The notes below the pieces were generated by a model, which was given only the letters and a program-made list of their open reading frames with translations, searched no databases and had not been told where the DNA came from. Of a stretch of DNA of 64,000 bases, positions 7,488 through 60,019 are shown piece after piece. The DNA lies in contig JAZRZL010000075.1 of the NCBI GenBank assembly GCA_045601345.1, positions 11,040-75,039 of the forward strand, given 5' to 3'. Both the position numbers and the translations under genes were made by a program. Source of the DNA: Faecousia sp. Lineage in GTDB: Bacteria > Bacillota > Clostridia > Oscillospirales > Oscillospiraceae. Position 1 is the first letter of the stretch; each line of letters starts with the position of its first letter.

Positions 7488-8507
7488 TTACTCGCGCTCC
7501 TTAAGCCGCTTCAAAACATCCCTGTTTTCTTCCATCAGCCTTTCAAGCTCATCGCCTGCAGCGCCAAGGAATTTCTGATATTCATCCTTTTCCAGCGGGC
7601 GAATATATTCGGACAATTGATAATGGAAAGCATCTCGCAGTGCCATATCCCGGCTTGCCATTTTTACTCTGCCCCGTTGTATCAGCGGCTTCCACAAGGC
7701 CATATTTTCAAATTTGTGAAAAAGCTCTTCCGCCTCTGCAATTGACAAAATATGTCCGATTTTTTCACATTCTGTTTTGATTGCATCTGCCAGTCCGCTT
7801 TCGTATGCGGCAATAATGTCAAGTATTTCGCTGTAAAATGTATCACGAACCTTATCCGTTGCCTTTAAATCGAGAATCTTTTTATATTCTTTTGCTTTTT
7901 CATGGAAGATACTGACATAAATCATGTCCGTAAAATGGGCATACTTGTAGTGGTTTTCGACCACACAATCCCGTAACGCATCCGTGAACTGCCTGCGATA
8001 ATTATTCTCCTGTATAGAGGCGAAAACAAAATCCTTGTCCCGCTGATTGATGTATTTTGTACTGCCGCCGGTTTTTCGGTTGATCAGGTCAATCACGATA
8101 TCCAGCATCATTTGACGCAGGGCACGTGCTTTTTCGCTTTCCGCAAGAAGCATGGCCATATTCAGGAACGATCTGAAATCAAAAACACTTATGGATCGGA
8201 TTTTGTGAGCGACATTTATGTCGGTCGCAAATGCTGCATCATATGCAGCAATAAAAGACTGCAAATTTTTTCCCTTGAGCAATTCATATCCATTAGCTTT
8301 CAATTCATCAGAATAAGCACTGATATATCGTTCAACAGTTCGAATATCTACGTCAAAATATGCTGCAAGCATTTCTTTCGTAAGGTAAAACTTCTCATTC
8401 CAGAAAACTGCCTTAACCTCAACTGTATTTTGAAGCTCTTCCACAGCAAGCTCGTTATTCAGAATGTTCTGCCTGTCAAGGCGGGATACCGTCAAGTCTT
8501 TTGCCAT
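7488..8507 (-). CDS. HTH-containing protein, putative atypically long cognate partner/antitoxin of Doc
   Basis: Its TAA stop is 1 nt from the doc ATG (TAA-T-ATG). HTH-like LTKEMLAAYFDVDIRTVERYI near the N-terminus. At 339 aa it is far longer than Phd-type antitoxins. Confidence 0.4.
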   Translation of the reverse strand: MAKDLTVSRLDRQNILNNELAVEELQNTVEVKAVFWNEKFYLTKEMLAAYFDVDIRTVERYISAYSDELKANGYELLKGKNLQSFIAAYDAAFATDINVAHKIRSISVFDFRSFLNMAMLLAESEKARALRQMMLDIVIDLINRKTGGSTKYINQRDKDFVFASIQENNYRRQFTDALRDCVVENHYKYAHFTDMIYVSIFHEKAKEYKKILDLKATDKVRDTFYSEILDIIAAYESGLADAIKTECEKIGHILSIAEAEELFHKFENMALWKPLIQRGRVKMASRDMALRDAFHYQLSEYIRPLEKDEYQKFLGAAGDELERLMEENRDVLKRLKERE

Positions 8508-10140: not shown

Positions 10141-10169
10141 ATCGTAGCATATGGAGTGCATCATGTCAA
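10141..10169 (-). promoter_or_regulatory. candidate promoter for the 8536-9981 gene
   Basis: Minus strand reads TTGACA, 17 nt, TACGAT. The -35 lies 18 bp outside the left end of repeat copy R1. Confidence 0.4.
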
Positions 10170-10187
10170 GAAGGGAGATCGCATAAG

Positions 10188-10454
10188 CTGTGGTAATTGA
10201 ATGTGTTAAGAAAATATGGACATCGGGTACGTTATGTCAACTGCGCACAACAGGGCAGTGGGCGGTTTTCCATGGCAGTAAATTAACAAGCCCTTGGTAG
10301 GCGGCGGATGAGGTTGGCTTCCTAAGATTGAGCGCTTCCTATGTTAGGAAGGTTTTCGGTTTTGGCAGTGCATCCAATGACCTCTTCCTTGGCTTCTACC
10401 GCCATTGGAGACGGTTCGTCTGTTCATAATTTGTTCACTCATTCAATTGCTGTG
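10188..10454 (+). mobile_element. MITE-like repeat copy R1 (outer TIR at both ends; the first core hairpin is deleted)
   Basis: Ends are GTAATTGAATGTGTTAAGAAAATATGGAC and the reverse complement GCAATTGAATGAGTGAACAAATTATGAAC. Flanked by TCGCATAAG (10179-10187) and TAGCATAAG (10455-10463). Confidence 0.75.
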
Positions 10455-10546
10455 TAGCATAAGTTTCATAAGTGCATTTTGCTGTTGAGACCATTCGGGA
10501 TTTAGGTGCAGCCGGCTGATTGCCGCGCCTCTTGTGTTTCTCTGCT

Positions 10547-17566: not shown

Positions 17567-17704
17567 CACGGTAATTGAATGCCCTGCCAAAACAGAAAAT
17601 CTTCCTAACATAGAAAGCGCTCCGTCTTAGAAAGCCAACCTCATCCGCCGCCTGCGGGCGGCACCGGCAAGGGCGGTTAACTTAACGCCATTGAAAACCG
17701 TCCC
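17567..17704 (-). repeat. repeat copy R2 (15-nt outer-TIR stub, core H, inner TIR)
   Basis: CACGGTAATTGAATG, then ...CTTCCTAACATAGAAAGCG...ACCTCATCCGCCGCCTGCGGGCGGCAC...TTAACTTAACGCCATTGAAAACCGTCCCC. Confidence 0.75.
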
Positions 17705-30376: not shown

Positions 30377-30405
30377 AGTATAGCAGGATTATTTAAAAAA
30401 GTCAA
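30377..30405 (-). promoter_or_regulatory. promoter of the zur-znu operon
   Basis: Minus strand: TTGACT (30400-30405), 17 nt, TATACT (30377-30382). Confidence 0.6.
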
Positions 30406-30424: not shown

Positions 30425-30664
30425 CACAGTAATTGAACGAGTTAAGAAAATGTGAACATTGGGCTAGACGGAAGAGGTCATTGGATGCACTGCTAAAACA
30501 GAAAATCTTCCTAACATAGAAAGCGCCCCGTCTTAGGAGGCCAACCTCATCCGCCGTCTGCGGGCGGCACCTTCCACAGCGGGGAAGGCATGGGCTGCTA
30601 ACTTAACGCCATGGAGAACCGTCTCCTTGTTACTCATATTTTCTTAACTTGTTCAATTACCGTG
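30425..30664 (-). mobile_element. MITE-like repeat copy R3 (outer TIR at both ends, core in reverse orientation)
   Basis: Left end CACAGTAATTGAACGAGTTAAGAAAATGTGAACATTGGG. Right end is the reverse complement of CACGGTAATTGAACAAGTTAAGAAAATATGAG. The core contains ACCTCATCCGCCGTCTGCGGGCGGCACCTTCC. Confidence 0.8.
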
Positions 30665-30677
30665 GGCGGAATCGCGG

Positions 30678-30706
30678 TTGACTTCGGATATTTGCTGATA
30701 TATAAT
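30678..30706 (+). promoter_or_regulatory. near-consensus promoter of the polysaccharide cassette
   Basis: TTGACT, 17 nt, TATAAT, beginning 13 bp after the R3 right end. Confidence 0.55.
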
Positions 30707-30751
30707 ACAAGATGTCGAAATATCGTCCTCCCTGGAAGGAATCCGATTTTC

Positions 30752-32203
30752 ATGAAATCTTTGGCCAAAAATTCGATTTTTAATACTTTATGCCAGTTGA
30801 CCAACACGCTGCTACCGTTTATTACCTCCATGTATGTCTCCCGGGTGCTGCTGAGCGATGGTATAGGGCTGGTGGCTTACGGTAAAAATATTGCCTCCTA
30901 TTTTGTCATGCTGGCACCGCTGGGGCTTCCTCTGTACGGCGTGCGCGAAATTGCTCGGATTCGGGAAAATCAGATGATGACCAACCAGCTCTTTACGGAG
31001 CTTTTTATCATCAATCTGCTTTCCACGGTGCTTTCCTCTACCATTTTTCTGTGCCTTTTGTATGCCGTGCCCAGCTTTCGGGCGGATATTTTCCTGTTCC
31101 TCAGTTGGGGAATGCAGGTATTTATGAATGTGTTCAACATTGATTGGGTGTATCAGGGGCAGGAGGATTATGTCAGTTTGGCTTGGCGCAATATCGTGAT
31201 CCGCATTGCGTGTTTTATTGCAGTTTTGTGCTTTGTCAAGGAGCGTTCGGACTATATTACTTATGCGTTTATCTCCTGTGCCGGAATTTGCCTGAATTAT
31301 CTTGTCAACTTTACCGGCGTATGGACGTATGCCCGCTTTGATTTCCGGGGGCTGAACCTGCGGCGGCATATAAAGCCCTTGCTCATGCTGGCGTGTATTC
31401 TCTTTTTCTATACCGCCTACAACCGCACGGACATCACCATGCTGGGTATGTTCTCCACCGAAGCACAGACCGGCATTTATTACAATGCCCACCGGATCAT
31501 TGAGATCATTGTCAATGTCTGCCTTGCTGTCACCACAGCGTTTCTTCCCAGTATGGCGTACTGCTACCAGACGGATCGGGAGCATTTTTTTGAGCTTCTG
31601 GAGCTGGGCACGAAAATCATCTGCTTTATCTCCATTCCCATGGCGGCGGGGGTCTTTGTGCTGGCACCCTATGCACTGGATGTGATCTATGGTGCGGAGT
31701 TTCTGCCCGGTGGCGCGGTCATTCGTGTATTCACGGGGCTGATTTTGCTCAAAGCTTTTGGAACTCTCATGTGCTATCAGCCCATTATGGCTACTGGCAA
31801 TGAAAAAAAGCTCCTGCCCGCCTATGTGCTGGCGGCGCTTGTCAATATCACGTTCAATGCCCTTCTGATTCCCGTCCTCCATGCGGTGGGTGCGGCAGTT
31901 GCCTCGGTCATCAGTGAACTGGCGGTATTTTGTGTGCAGTATTTCTCCATGCGCAAGGTGCTGCGCTATCCGAGGATGGCGAAGCCGCTGGCCACGGCGG
32001 TATTCTCGGCGGCGTTGATGGCGCTTGCCATGTGGCTGGTGATCCGGCGGCTCAGCGATGCGCTGCTGATCTGCATCGTTGGCTTTGTGGCAGGTGTGGC
32101 GGTTTACCTTGGCGTGAATTTACTGCTCAAAACAGACCTCCTCTATGAATGGCTGGGGGCGCTTCGGAAGCTCCTTACAGCAAGAAAGGAAAGGAATTCC
32201 TAA
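30752..32203 (+). CDS. polysaccharide flippase (Wzx / MOP superfamily)
   Basis: Start trimmed to the ATG at 30752 (MKSLAKNSIFNTLCQL...). The upstream 47 codons of the ORF are repeat and promoter DNA. About 12 or more TM helices, typical of oligosaccharide flippases. Confidence 0.75.
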   Translation: MKSLAKNSIFNTLCQLTNTLLPFITSMYVSRVLLSDGIGLVAYGKNIASYFVMLAPLGLPLYGVREIARIRENQMMTNQLFTELFIINLLSTVLSSTIFLCLLYAVPSFRADIFLFLSWGMQVFMNVFNIDWVYQGQEDYVSLAWRNIVIRIACFIAVLCFVKERSDYITYAFISCAGICLNYLVNFTGVWTYARFDFRGLNLRRHIKPLLMLACILFFYTAYNRTDITMLGMFSTEAQTGIYYNAHRIIEIIVNVCLAVTTAFLPSMAYCYQTDREHFFELLELGTKIICFISIPMAAGVFVLAPYALDVIYGAEFLPGGAVIRVFTGLILLKAFGTLMCYQPIMATGNEKKLLPAYVLAALVNITFNALLIPVLHAVGAAVASVISELAVFCVQYFSMRKVLRYPRMAKPLATAVFSAALMALAMWLVIRRLSDALLICIVGFVAGVAVYLGVNLLLKTDLLYEWLGALRKLLTARKERNS

Positions 32204-32659
32204 ATGAAGCTTTGTCTTGCAGCCTCTACCGGCGGACATTATGAGCAGCTGATGATGCTCCGTCCGCTTTCGGAGAAGCATTCGTGTTTTGTCCTTACTG
32301 AGCGCACGAGCTATGCTTTGACGGATCAAAAATTAAAAACCTATTATGTCACCCAGATGAACCGCAAGGAATGGACGGTCGCCTTCAAGCTGGTGGGTGC
32401 TGCATTTAAATCCCTGTATATTATCCTCCGGGAGCGCCCCGATGCCATCATCTGCACGGGTGTGCTGGCAATGGTGCCGATGTGTCTTCTTATGAAGCTT
32501 TTCGGAAAAAAGCTCATCTATATTGAATCCTTTGCCAAAACCGATTCCCCCACGCTGACGGGCAAGCTTCTCTGCAAGTATGCCGACCAGTTCTATGTCC
32601 AGTGGGAGAGTATGCTTGCGGTCTATCCCAACGCTATCTATGTTGGCGGCATTTACTAG
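32204..32659 (+). CDS. PssD/Cps14F-like (Alg14-like) glycosyltransferase membrane subunit
   Basis: N-terminal CLAASTGGHYEQL motif. About 150 aa. ATG directly follows the preceding TAA. Confidence 0.7.
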   Translation: MKLCLAASTGGHYEQLMMLRPLSEKHSCFVLTERTSYALTDQKLKTYYVTQMNRKEWTVAFKLVGAAFKSLYIILRERPDAIICTGVLAMVPMCLLMKLFGKKLIYIESFAKTDSPTLTGKLLCKYADQFYVQWESMLAVYPNAIYVGGIY

Positions 32660-32668
32660 GAGGCAGCC

Positions 32669-33160
32669 ATGATTTTTGTGACCCTTGGCTCTCAGAAATT
32701 CCAGTTTAACCGCCTTCTGAAGGAGCTGGATCGTCTGATTGAGCAGAATATCATTTGTGAGCCGGTGTTTGCGCAGGTAGGCAGCAGCGACTATACTCCT
32801 CGGCACTATGAATACAAGCGATTCCTTGACCAAGACGAATTTGCTTTGCAGCAGTCCCGCGCCGATATTATCATCACCCACGGCGGCACCGGTGCCATCA
32901 TCGGTGGCGTGAAAAAGGGGAAAAAGGTCATTGCTGTGCCCAGAAGCGCAAAATATGGCGAGCACGTAGATGACCACCAGCTCCAGATCATTTCACAGTT
33001 CGGCACGATGGACATTATGGAGCCGTGCTTTGATGTTGCCGAATTGGGTAAGGCTTATCTGGCGGCGAAGGAGAAAACCTATACGCCCTACCAATCCAAT
33101 ACACAGAACATTCTGGATCGTATTGAAGCCTATCTGCAAGATGCAGAAAAACACAGATAG
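32669..33160 (+). CDS. PssE/Cps14G-like (Alg13-like) glycosyltransferase catalytic subunit
   Basis: MIFVTLGSQKFQFNRL... and IITHGGTGAIIGG motifs. Paired with the Alg14-like gene. Confidence 0.7.
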   Translation: MIFVTLGSQKFQFNRLLKELDRLIEQNIICEPVFAQVGSSDYTPRHYEYKRFLDQDEFALQQSRADIIITHGGTGAIIGGVKKGKKVIAVPRSAKYGEHVDDHQLQIISQFGTMDIMEPCFDVAELGKAYLAAKEKTYTPYQSNTQNILDRIEAYLQDAEKHR

Positions 33161-33166
33161 GGGTGC

Positions 33167-34237
33167 ATGACGGTGAAGCTGCTGGTCGTTTCCAATTTAT
33201 ATCCCAATGAAGCACATCCGGCCTACGGCACCTTTGTAGCACGGTTCTGTGAGCAGCTTGACACGCTGGAGATAGACTACGACAAGGTTGTCATGTACCA
33301 GTCGAATGGCAAACTGAAGAAAGCTTGGGGCTATGTCCGCTTTTACATTGCCTCCTTTTTTGCTTGCCTGTCCCGGAAGTATGATACGGTCTATGTCCAC
33401 TTTGCTTCCCACAGCGCCCCCGGGGTGCTGCTGGCGGGAAAGTTCCGCAAATTCCGGCTAATTACCAATACCCACGGCAGCGATGTAGACCCCCAAACCC
33501 CCACGCAGGAGAAATTCCAAATTTTTACCAGAAAGCTGATTGCCCGAAGTGATTCCGTGGTGGTTCCCTCGCCCTATTTTCAAAGCCATGTTGCGGAAAA
33601 ATATGCCTATCCGGCGGAGCACATTTTTGTGTATCCCTCTGGCGGGGTTGCCAGCTTTTTTTCCCGTGAGCCAGGAGAAAAGAAAGGCAATTGCCTGAAG
33701 GGAACTGCCTTCCGGGTGGGTTTTGTGGGAAGGCTGGAAAAGAATAAGGGCTGGGATACCTTTGTAGAGGCTGCGGCTCTTTTGAAAGACGAATTTCCAA
33801 ATTTCCAGTTTATTATGGTCGGTACTGGCACAGGAGAAAAAGCACTGGAGGCGATGTGCGCAGAACGGAAGCTTGACCTGATTCGTTATCCACTGCTGAA
33901 TCAAAAAAGCCTTGCAGAGCTGTTTTCCTGTCTGGATGTCTTTGCCTTCCCTACAAGGGGAGAGAGTCTGGGGCTGGTTGGGCTGGAGGCTATGGCCAGT
34001 GGCGTGGCTGTGATTGCCAGTGACTGCGCTGCACCGAAGTATTATATTTCTCATGGCTATAATGGCCTGAAATTTCCTCCCGGCGATGCAAAAGCGCTTG
34101 CGGAGGCCATTAAAACCTATTACCTTTTGCCGGAGGAAAAGAAAAAAGAAATGCTGGCACAGGGTTACCAGACTGCGCTGGCATATGCGCCGGATAAAAT
34201 ACGGAGCACACTGGAAACGATTCTGAAGGAGAGCTGA
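33167..34237 (+). CDS. GT4 family glycosyltransferase
   Basis: C-terminal GESLGLVGLEAMASGVAVIASD (the E-x7-E region typical of GT4). Confidence 0.75.
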   Translation: MTVKLLVVSNLYPNEAHPAYGTFVARFCEQLDTLEIDYDKVVMYQSNGKLKKAWGYVRFYIASFFACLSRKYDTVYVHFASHSAPGVLLAGKFRKFRLITNTHGSDVDPQTPTQEKFQIFTRKLIARSDSVVVPSPYFQSHVAEKYAYPAEHIFVYPSGGVASFFSREPGEKKGNCLKGTAFRVGFVGRLEKNKGWDTFVEAAALLKDEFPNFQFIMVGTGTGEKALEAMCAERKLDLIRYPLLNQKSLAELFSCLDVFAFPTRGESLGLVGLEAMASGVAVIASDCAAPKYYISHGYNGLKFPPGDAKALAEAIKTYYLLPEEKKKEMLAQGYQTALAYAPDKIRSTLETILKES

Positions 34238-34243
34238 GAGACG

Positions 34244-35230
34244 ATGGTACAACCCCTGATTTCGGTAATTATCCCCGTATACAATGTCGAACCGTATCTT
34301 GAAAAATGCCTGAAATCCATTTTGGCGCAGACCTACCCCAATTTTGAGGTTTTGGCAGTCAATGACGGTTCTACCGATGGCTGTGCCGCCATTCTGGAGG
34401 CCTTTGCCACGAAGGATCGCCGTCTGCACGTCTTCACGCAGGAAAACAGCGGCGTCTCTGCTGCCAGAAATTTGGGGCTGGATCGTGCCGCGGGAGAGTA
34501 TATCGCGTTCCTGGATTCCGATGACTGGGTTGAACCGAAATTCCTGCAAACCCTCTATACCTGTCTGACAAAGTATGAGGCAGATATCTCGATTTGCAAC
34601 ATCCACTATATCTATGCCGATGGCTCTTTTGGAAAGCGCACGCCGAAAATTCTTGAGGAGGCAGTCGTCGATACCCGGGAGGCTTATTCTGATCTTCTGC
34701 TGGAGGAAAAATTCCGCTCCCATGTCTATAATAAGCTCTATAAAGCAGAACTGTTTTCCGATCTGCGGTTCCCGGCCATGCCCGTCCACGAGGACTCCTA
34801 TATTATGTTCCCCCTGTTTTCCCGGGCGAAGCGGGTGGCGTATACGCCCTTCTACGGTTATTACTATTTGCAGCGCCGACCGAACAGTCTGCTCACTACC
34901 TGCTTCAATGAAAACCGCTTCTTGTTGTTTACGTCCATTGACCACGCCCTTCCTATAGCAAAGGCGTTGGGTCTGGAGACCGAGCATCGTGCCTTTACAT
35001 TTCACAACGTAGTCAGCCTGTGCAACCATCTGGTGAACTGCTATGCAAACCTCAGCCGCTCCCAGAAAAAGGACTATTGCAGCCGCGTCCGCAGTGCCCT
35101 GCGCACCTATGGATCACCTAAGGGCAATCCCTATATCTCCAAAGTGACCCGCTTCCGCCTTTTCCTGATTTCCCATTGCTTCCCGCTGTATGTTGTTGTC
35201 TATAAGCTCATAAAAAAGCTCGGAATATAA
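34244..35230 (+). CDS. GT2 family glycosyltransferase
   Basis: ISVIIPVYNVEPYLEKCL...NDGSTDG...DSDD motifs. Confidence 0.8.
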   Translation: MVQPLISVIIPVYNVEPYLEKCLKSILAQTYPNFEVLAVNDGSTDGCAAILEAFATKDRRLHVFTQENSGVSAARNLGLDRAAGEYIAFLDSDDWVEPKFLQTLYTCLTKYEADISICNIHYIYADGSFGKRTPKILEEAVVDTREAYSDLLLEEKFRSHVYNKLYKAELFSDLRFPAMPVHEDSYIMFPLFSRAKRVAYTPFYGYYYLQRRPNSLLTTCFNENRFLLFTSIDHALPIAKALGLETEHRAFTFHNVVSLCNHLVNCYANLSRSQKKDYCSRVRSALRTYGSPKGNPYISKVTRFRLFLISHCFPLYVVVYKLIKKLGI

Positions 35231-35254
35231 GGCCATATCGCATCTCTCAAAGAA

Positions 35255-35320
35255 ATGCTCCCTTCATGATGAACAGTGACTTTTATTTCACTGTCTTCAT
35301 AAAGGGAGCATATCATTTTC
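35255..35320 (+). terminator. long hairpin after the GT2 gene (probable terminator)
   Basis: ATGCTCCCTTCATGATGAACAGTGA / TCACTGTCTTCATAAAGGGAGCAT imperfect stem followed by ATCATTTTC. Confidence 0.4.
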
Positions 35321-35544
35321 TGGGTTGAGAGTTTTCTGCTGGTTGTCAGCCTTGGCTTTAGATGCCATTAAGGTGCGGCAGTTATCCTGCCCCGCATACA
35401 GCACGACTTTTACGGTGCTCTCTCACCGAAGTCATTACTACCTCGCTTTTCTTATATGTAATTCAGAGACAACGGTCGATCGAATTTTGCGAAAAAAATA
35501 GTGTGTGAATCGTGGCAGTGTATCAGATAACAATGGATATTCCC

Positions 35545-35836
35545 CCACATGATAATTGAATGTGTTAAGAAAAATATGAACATTGGGCAACGTTATGTCA
35601 ACTGCGTACAACCGGACAGTGGGCGGTTCTTAATGGCAGTAAATTAACAAGCCCTTGCCTTCCCCGCTGGGGAAGGTGCCGCCCGTAGGCGGCGGATGAG
35701 GTTGGCCTCCTAAGACGGAACACTTTCTATGTTAGGAAGATTTTCTGTTTTAGCAGTACATCCAATGACCTTGGCTCCTCCCGCCATTGGGGACAATTCG
35801 TTTGTTCATAATTTGTTTACGCATTCAATTACCGTG
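35545..35836 (+). mobile_element. MITE-like repeat copy R4 (full-length, outer TIR at both ends)
   Basis: CA(CAT)GATAATTGAATGTGTTAAGAAAAATATGAACATTGGG ... GTTCATAATTTGTTTACGCATTCAATTACCGTG. Flanked by GATATTCCC at 35536-35544 and 35837-35845. Confidence 0.8.
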
Positions 35837-35856
35837 GATATTCCCAAAATAGGGCT

Positions 35857-35884
35857 TGATTTTTTTACGGACAGCTGATATAAT
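35857..35884 (+). promoter_or_regulatory. promoter of tRNA-Val
   Basis: TTGATT, 16 nt ending in TGa, then TATAAT. The -10 ends 11 nt before the tRNA 5' end. Confidence 0.55.
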
Positions 35885-35895
35885 GACTTTGCTTT

Positions 35896-35972
35896 GGAGG
35901 ATTAGCTCAGCTGGTTAGAGCGCCTGCTTCACACGCAGGAGGTCACTGGTTCGAGTCCAGCATTCTCCACCA
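35896..35972 (+). tRNA. tRNA-Val (anticodon CAC), CCA encoded
   Basis: Manual cloverleaf: acceptor GGAGGAT/ATTCTCC, D arm GCTC-AGCTGGTTA-GAGC, anticodon stem CCTGC/GCAGG with loop TTCACAC, T arm with GGTTCGAGTCC, 3' ACCA. Confidence 0.9.
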
Positions 35973-59422: not shown

Positions 59423-60019
59423 CCCGCGCCAAGGCTTCCCCTCTGGGGAAGCTGTCGAGCGAAGCGAGACTGAAGAGGTCATTGGAAGCACTACTAAAAC
59501 CGAAAATTTTCCCAATATAGGAAGCACTCTGTATGAGGAGTGAAACCTCATCCGCCGCCTGCGGGCGGCACCTTCCCCAGAGGGGAAGGCAAGGGCTAAG
59601 GCTTCCCCTCTGGGGAAGCTGTCGAGCGAAGCGAGACTGAAGAGGTCATTGGAAGCACTACTAAAACCGAAAATTTTCCCAATATAGGAAGCACTCTGTC
59701 TTAGGAGGCCAACCTCATCCGCCGCCTGCGGGCGGCACCTTCCCCAGAGGGGAAGGCAAGGGGCTAAGGCTTCCCCTTTGGGGAAGCTGTCGAGCGAAGC
59801 GAGACGGAAGAGGTCATTGGAAGCACTACTAAAACCGAAAACCTTCCTAACATAGAAAGCACGCAGTTTCAGGAGTGAAACCTCATCCGCCGCCTGCGGG
59901 CGGCACCTTCCCCAGAGGGGAAGGCAGGGGCTGTTAATTTACTGCCATGGAAAATCGCCCACTGTCCTGTTGTTGTCTATCCCAATGTTCACATTTTCTT
60001 AACTCGTTCAATTACCGTG
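59389..60019 (-). repeat. repeat copy R10 (inner-TIR remnant, three tandem D+H units of 167/168/167 bp at 59431-59932, outer TIR)
   Basis: Unit boundaries at 59431, 59598 and 59766, each starting AAGGCTTCCCCT(C/T)TGGGGAAGCTGTCGAGCGAAGCGAGAC. Ends CCCAATGTTCACATTTTCTTAACTCGTTCAATTACCGTG. Confidence 0.85.

Follow-up and report, generated by a model that had tools for sequence, protein, structure and literature searches.

Small ISAs1-type elements with 10-bp target duplications often lie at a fixed distance from promoters in a gut Clostridia genome

The window analysed here, the whole 64,000-nucleotide stretch G000:C75:11040-75039, belongs to a 2.03 Mb gut Clostridia genome (G000) assembled in 91 contigs with 50% G+C. 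The names given to related proteins assign this genome to the Oscillospiraceae. The window carries several copies of a short repeat element, among them R1, R3 and R4, and the motif CACGGTAATTGAA, allowing up to two mismatches, occurs seven times in it against 1.05 occurrences expected. R4 lies between a glycosyltransferase gene and the promoter of a tRNA-Val gene. The features referred to below are as follows, in window coordinates.

10141 to 10169, minus strand: outward-facing promoter at the left end of R1, with TTGACA (10164-10169), a 17-nt spacer and TACGAT (10141-10146)
10179 to 10188, no strand: left duplication copy of R1, TCGCATAAGC, 8/10 identical to the right copy
10189 to 10454, plus strand: R1, a 266-bp MITE copy of greater age whose ends have decayed, to 3 and 2 mismatches in their terminal 15 nt
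10455 to 10464, no strand: right duplication copy of R1, TAGCATAAGT
17567 to 17676, plus strand: one-ended copy, a perfect terminal repeat joined straight to a core module
30425 to 30664, no strand: R3, a 240-bp copy with two left-type ends
35536 to 35547, no strand: left target-site duplication copy of R4, GATATTCC[CC]CA, a 10-mer with its C-run expanded by 2 bp
35548 to 35836, plus strand: R4, a 289-bp MITE copy running from a left-type to a right-type end
35837 to 35846, no strand: right target-site duplication copy of R4, GATATTCCCA
35856 to 35884, plus strand: host promoter of tRNA-Val, with TTGATT, a 17-nt spacer and TATAAT, its -35 hexamer beginning 19 nt past the end of R4
35896 to 35972: tRNA-Val, adjoining the promoter beside R4
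59428 to 60019, minus strand: copy whose left-type end is at 60019, with the 167-bp core unit repeated in tandem three times (59428-59929)

R4 is flanked on both sides by GATATTCCC, at 35536-35544 and 35837-35845, as the first-pass annotation had reported. The right copy directly touches the terminal ...ACCGTG of the element, which stops at 35836, while the left copy and the left end of the element have CCA between them. When two C are deleted from the C5 run of the left copy, the flanks are an identical 10-mer, GATATTCCCA. A suggested extension of the match by TG did not survive, as these two bases belong to the conserved terminal GTG and their agreement is best taken as coincidence. The right terminal repeat of R4 is perfect (CACGGTAATTGAATG on the minus strand); the left one is decayed (CATGATAATTGAATG at 35548-35562, with two mismatches against the consensus CACGGTAATTGAATG). 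The only open reading frame of at least 50 amino acids that touches R4 is a 57-aa frame over its left end. The predicted fold of R4 is a long hairpin (z = -4.9), and an Rfam search with the element matched no family.

The flanks ascribed to R1, TCGCATAAG (10179-10187) and TAGCATAAG (10455-10463), are present as claimed and agree at eight of ten positions when read as 10-mers. R3 was said to have no duplication, and its flanks indeed agree at one position in ten. R3 and R4 together bracket a glycan gene cassette (30425-35846). As the ends of a composite transposon they gave no sign that the cassette has moved: their outer flanks do not match, and R4 has a duplication of its own. The 300 bp between the glycosyltransferase gene and R4 (35234-35535) have no counterpart in the same-genus genome G002, where 31 bp join the end of the gene to the tRNA-Val promoter region. 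Right after the gene lies a hairpin-forming stretch of about 65 nt (35248-35316) with 81-92% identity to several places in three genomes of the same genus (G002, G005 and G006) and in one of another genus in the same family (G012); it may be another small repeat family.

Across the genome, the element matches 66 places and has 48 recognisable ends. The end consensus is CACGGTAATTGAAyG, and the subterminal sequence that comes next is of one of two types, left or right. Two-ended copies range from 45 to 700 bp and most often measure 290-330 bp; one further copy reaches 1776 bp solely through an inserted 1442-bp IS4-like element. The core units are also found alone and as 167-bp tandem arrays.

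The genome-wide tabulation of flanks that the first-pass annotation had called for compared the 10 nt outside each end in 16 two-ended copies, and it yielded a consistent duplication length. Four copies have flanks that agree at all ten positions (AATAATACAA, CGAAAATGAT, CCTAATACCC and GAACATCCCC), three, R1 among them, agree at eight of ten and one at seven of ten, and six have no duplication. The copy on contig C68 has a flush 9-bp duplication, TTGCAGAAG, matching 9/9. For random genome positions separated by 300 bp, the probability of 8/10 or better is 4e-4, and 10/10 came up in none of 200,000 trials. When the flanks of all 48 ends were compared with one another (1128 pairs), agreement of 8/10 or better was confined to neighbouring ends, in seven pairs, and to one further pair, which is the mark of an inversion. 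The duplicated 10-mers vary from copy to copy. These flanks give a modal duplication of 10 bp, so that the earlier proposal of target-site duplications of about 9 bp was right about their nature and, apart from the 9 bp of one copy, short by one nucleotide. Elements with the same ends in an Oscillibacter MAG have flanks that agree at 10/10 and 9/10.

One copy, at C14:7894-8225, interrupts a 120-bp repeat of another family, for which the relevant places are these.

C14:7805-7893 and 8226-8275: 120-bp repeat, interrupted
C6:8869-8988, C51:16473-16593 and others: 120-bp repeat, intact

Joined with a single CGAAAATGAT, the C14 flanks align without gaps to many intact copies of this repeat. The genome contains 16 uninterrupted paralogues in which the target occurs once, as ...GGGGCAAT-CGAAAATGAT-GC(A/G)CAATTATACCAT..., and G002 has at least five intact paralogues with CGAAAATGAT once between the same flanks. 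The 120-bp repeat is a third repeat family, of which this genome has about 20 copies and G002 at least five. The expectation of empty sites with a single target is thus borne out for the C14 copy by paralogous sites, while no orthologous site was found for R4 or R1. The empty R4 site would read ...CAATG-GATATTCCCA-AAATAGGG..., and the empty R1 site would hold one T(C/A)GCATAAG(C/T).

At the R4 site of G002 the element is absent, but 300 bp of the left flank are absent too. For four other copies, orthologous empty sites were sought in same-genus genomes, where synteny was broken or the intergenic DNA too diverged. A search for same-species DNA around R4 and R1 returned no exact record of the neighbouring protein, and metagenome contigs did not contain the empty-site pattern; for the phosphorylase encoded next to it, the nearest relatives in metagenomes reach 63-68% identity.

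Copies of the element are 84-94% identical to one another, which indicates that its activity is not recent. Of 200 genomes sampled from the same family, none contained the exact end pattern, and eight same-genus genomes held no strong match to the element. These comparisons point to an expansion inside this lineage that is not recent.

The pair of ends that marks an inversion lies on contig C87. Its left end (22532) and right end (31496) have the same orientation, are 8.96 kb apart and share the perfect 10-mer GCTGAAAGGA. We read this pattern as the trace of an inversion that arose when two inverted MITE copies recombined, which would explain why the 700-bp copy C87:22532-23231 has no duplication of its own. 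One of the two expected reciprocal pairs could be checked, the far end of the second element being truncated, and in relatives the flanks lie on different contigs, leaving no synteny comparison. The use of reciprocal target duplications to infer inversions between insertion sequence copies has a precedent in Aeromonas salmonicida 34mel (PMC5756416), which the C87 pair resembles in its shared 10-mer, with the difference that only one reciprocal pair is checkable here. Copies without a duplication would more generally reflect decay and recombination between copies.

Several contigs break within other repeats. The ends at the borders of C7, C51 and C23 were considered as starts of an insertion sequence and rejected, since the sequence next to them is a different, palindromic repeat. 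This second repeat, of about 140 bp (...AAGGGCACCTCT...GAATCTGCGGGTCTTATT...), is very abundant, with many copies 95-100% identical; it lies at C7:2992-3127, C51:1-159, C23:17500-17729 and more than 60 other places, and contigs C78, C76, C86, C61, C60, C69, C67, C87, C25 and C79 end inside it. Another multi-copy element, with the end GTTACTATTCACAGCCCGTGAAAACTTTG, breaks at least six contigs and is found at these places.

C63, C55, C73 and C30, contig ends (first ~140 nt): GTTACTATTCACAGCCCGTGAAAACTTTG-ended element
C67:11520-11660: GTTACTATTCACAGCCCGTGAAAACTTTG-ended element
C54:7506-7640: GTTACTATTCACAGCCCGTGAAAACTTTG-ended element

The parent of the element was sought by scanning one genome per species for CACGGTAATTGAAYGNGTWAA. 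The scan returned 34 loci, nearly all in MAGs of Oscillospiraceae, Lachnospiraceae and other uncultured Clostridia, with one labelled Candidatus Zymogenus. Full-length elements of 1247-1254 bp with MITE-type ends occur at loci L066, L117, L118 and L115. L066 is a 1252-bp contig consisting of a complete 1250-bp element between MITE-type ends, and L089 holds a second, frameshifted copy of that element. A single 373-aa open reading frame (L066:105-1223) matches NF033564, the ISAs1 family transposase model, at 5e-116 (387 bits against a cut-off of 70), and contains the domains PF13808 (2.9e-26) and PF01609 (1.5e-20); this NF033564-matching frame comes from other genomes and not from the one studied here. 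Close relatives of this frame number in the thousands, and most of them lie on contigs of 1.2-1.5 kb.

Alignment of the MITE with this parent reveals common 15-nt termini together with about 65 nt on the left and about 36 nt on the right, and an interior unrelated to the transposase gene. In the parent, the left part continues into the promoter region of the transposase gene, and the right part includes the last codons and stop codon of that gene. A related MITE family, with ends CACGGTTTTTGAAyG and a right subterminal sequence similar to that of the MITE here, is present in a genome of another family in the same order (G023, loci L044, L046 and L049-L051).

The ISAs1 family, exemplified by ISAs1, IS1358 and the E. 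coli H-repeat elements, duplicates 8-10 bp of its target according to ISfinder. The annotated family member ISAzs12, of Azospirillum sp. B510, has 10-bp duplications in three of three copies (CAAGGCGGAC, AGGCTTACCC and GGGCCGGGCG). Termini typical of the family begin CAGGG...; ISAzs12 begins CAGGGGAATCG and the elements here CACGGTAATTG, with only the positions CA.GG in common. A literature search found no source for the duplication length of ISAs1, and the short metagenome contigs gave no duplications of full-length copies. Contigs that have one side in common differ in the other flank, and chimeric contig flanks are probably the reason why these duplications are missing. The suggestion that a DDE transposase mobilised the repeats is supported by ends that are those of an ISAs1-family insertion sequence encoding such an enzyme; what changes is the family, which makes duplications of 10 bp and not 8-9 bp.

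A transposase gene bounded by CACGGTAATTGAA ends, for which a search of this genome had been proposed, is absent from the assembly except for a 96-nt relic. The relic (C32:27749-27844) has 80% identity to the cognate transposase over its last 30 aa and 85% over 96 nt by tblastn and blastn, and is followed by a truncated right end, indicating that a matching element once resided in this lineage. Apart from it, tblastn and blastn of the assembly found only pieces of a different ISAs1-like element at the ends of contigs C21, C2 and C28. The smallest contig kept measures 2469 bp and a lone multi-copy 1.25-kb element would be dropped, so absence from the assembly does not mean absence from the organism. 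Among 300 genomes of the order, the transposase had only two distant matches.

Two elements of this genome were considered as the parent and rejected. The 1776-bp stretch of C38 between two MITE ends proved to be an unrelated IS4-like element inside a MITE copy. This element (L053:1167-2608, or G000 C38:39981-41422) is 1442 bp long, encodes a 431-aa DDE_Tnp_1 transposase, has perfect 19-bp inverted repeats (CAATGCCGTCAACCTAACG) and sits in the core hairpin of the MITE copy with an 11-bp duplication, CCCCGCTGGGG. The element of C91 has ends that differ from those of the MITE; it is a 1490-bp IS4-like element (C91:3061-4550) whose inverted repeats read TCACTGCCGTCCCATA and whose DDE_Tnp_1 open frame is 427 aa long.

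About a third of the ends of the element lie at a fixed distance from promoters. Promoters were called as outward-facing pairs with at least 9 of 12 matches to TTGACA/TATAAT and a spacer of 16-18 nt. By this definition, the distance between the element and an outward -35 hexamer is exactly 19 nt at 16 of the 48 ends, while every other offset between 0 and 49 nt claims 0-4 ends. R4, R1 and R3 are all among the 16: the left end of R1 lies 19 nt from the -35 hexamer of its outward promoter, and that of R3 lies 19 nt from a minus-strand -35 hexamer at 30400-30405 (TTGACT, a 17-nt spacer and TATACT). The 16 promoter-bearing flanks are mutually unrelated in sequence. In other genomes, about ten in number, the 19-nt offset recurs at 18 of 53 ends, including three full-length copies. 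Measured without any promoter filter, the per-position information of 99 ends has its only peaks at positions 20-22 (TTG) and 40-48 (TG..TATAAT), and the duplicated 10 nt carry none. The element end is thus at about -55 relative to the transcription start, with the duplicated nucleotides at about -54 to -45. The tRNA-Val promoter beside R4 is also found in G002, there without the element, and so belongs to the host.

Taken together, R4 and R1 are very probably non-autonomous MITE copies with ISAs1-family ends and 10-bp insertion footprints, placed at a fixed spot before promoters. From a 1.25-kb ISAs1-family insertion sequence the MITE retains about 65 nt at the left and about 36 nt at the right. 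Each part includes the terminal inverted repeat, which is imperfect, about 34 bp long and begins CACGGTAATTGAAyG, and in place of the transposase gene there is a modular core unrelated to it. An ISAs1-family DDE transposase, supplied in trans, would bind both ends and insert the element at a staggered 10-bp (sometimes 9-bp) cut, whose repair would leave the flanking direct repeat. The target would be a fixed place in front of sigma-70-type promoters, with no sequence motif, and the core promoter would stay intact and directed away from the element.

It is about an even call whether ISAs1-type transposases read promoters rather than sequence, integrating near -55, exactly 19 nt upstream of the -35 hexamer; if they do, recognition would probably involve an RNA polymerase holoenzyme complex or the -35/-10 geometry. 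The same spacing might instead have arisen by selection after random insertion, with the harmless insertions surviving, which we consider unlikely. A bias of survival towards intergenic DNA is usual for bacterial mobile elements, and copies this old (84-94% identity) gave selection time to act. Such a process predicts a range of positions, however, whereas the offsets spike at 19 nt both here and in at least ten other genomes, and the cut site itself is devoid of a sequence signal. A spike of a single nucleotide is hard to explain by selection alone. A literature search found no paper on a fixed position upstream of promoters for the ISAs1 family.

Mobilisation by a resident transposase other than the cognate one, either the ISAs1-like enzyme of C21/C2 and C28 or the IS4-like enzymes of C38 and C91, is improbable. 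These are the only DDE_Tnp_1 transposase genes or gene pieces in the assembly, and the C21 element likewise starts CACGGT; its end diverges after six bases, however, and over the 110 residues aligned its protein shares 39% identity with the cognate one. The IS4-like ends are unrelated (CAATGCCGTCAACC and TCACTGCCGTCC), one of these elements duplicates 11 bp, and the relic in C32 is of the cognate gene. That the outward promoter is part of an element longer than thought is very hard to credit, even if outward promoters are common on insertion sequences, given that the promoter is situated beyond the duplication, that the 16 flanks show no relationship in sequence and that the R4 promoter exists in G002 without the element. 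The reading of the flanking repeats as chance matches or as part of a longer repeat unit has practically nothing left to it: R4's left copy does lie 3 bp from the recognisable end and the R1 pair is imperfect, but the 10-mers differ by copy, the null for 8/10 or better is 4e-4, 16 paralogous empty sites hold the target once, and in the all-against-all comparison only true partner ends match.

Among known systems, the elements resemble the ISAs1 family in their 1.25-kb partner, with its one open reading frame, in their terminal inverted repeats and in the 10-bp duplication. Unlike ISAs1 insertion sequences, the copies here are without a transposase gene, in an assembly that holds only the cognate relic, and their termini read CACGG where those of ISAzs12 read CAGGG. 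Bacterial MITEs in general include Correia/CREE, RUP and MIC231, and the elements share with these their small size, non-coding nature, intergenic location, multiple copies and inverted-repeat ends. Ty3 integrates at a fixed distance from the transcription starts of RNA polymerase III genes. The position would likewise be set here by a landmark of the transcription machinery and not by the sequence of the cut site; this is a resemblance only, as the enzymes and hosts are unrelated and a tethering factor is known for none of the elements here. BrickBuilt of Porphyromonas gingivalis has variable numbers of tandem 23-nt units between a 'leader' and a 'tail' (PMC4596501). The interior here is also made of variable-number tandem units, of 167 bp in contrast to 23 nt. 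The ISAs1-family parent, the 10-bp duplication and a promoter position fixed to the nucleotide set the elements apart from both BrickBuilt and MITEs in general. The elements make up a new ISAs1-type MITE family whose interior is modular and in part tandem.

The duplications mean that transposition brought the modular repeats into the long intergenic regions of this gut Clostridia genome, which explains the ends of the repeats, the variation in their copy number and at least one inversion. If targeting is responsible for the promoter spacing, the place before a promoter would be a safe site to land, with the core promoter unharmed, and the elements would provide a ready-made promoter map for uncultured bacteria as well as a bacterial connection between a DDE transposase and the transcription machinery that can be tested. 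Insertion sequences and MITEs of this kind would then be natural promoter markers, and bacterial integration would be tethered to the transcription machinery.
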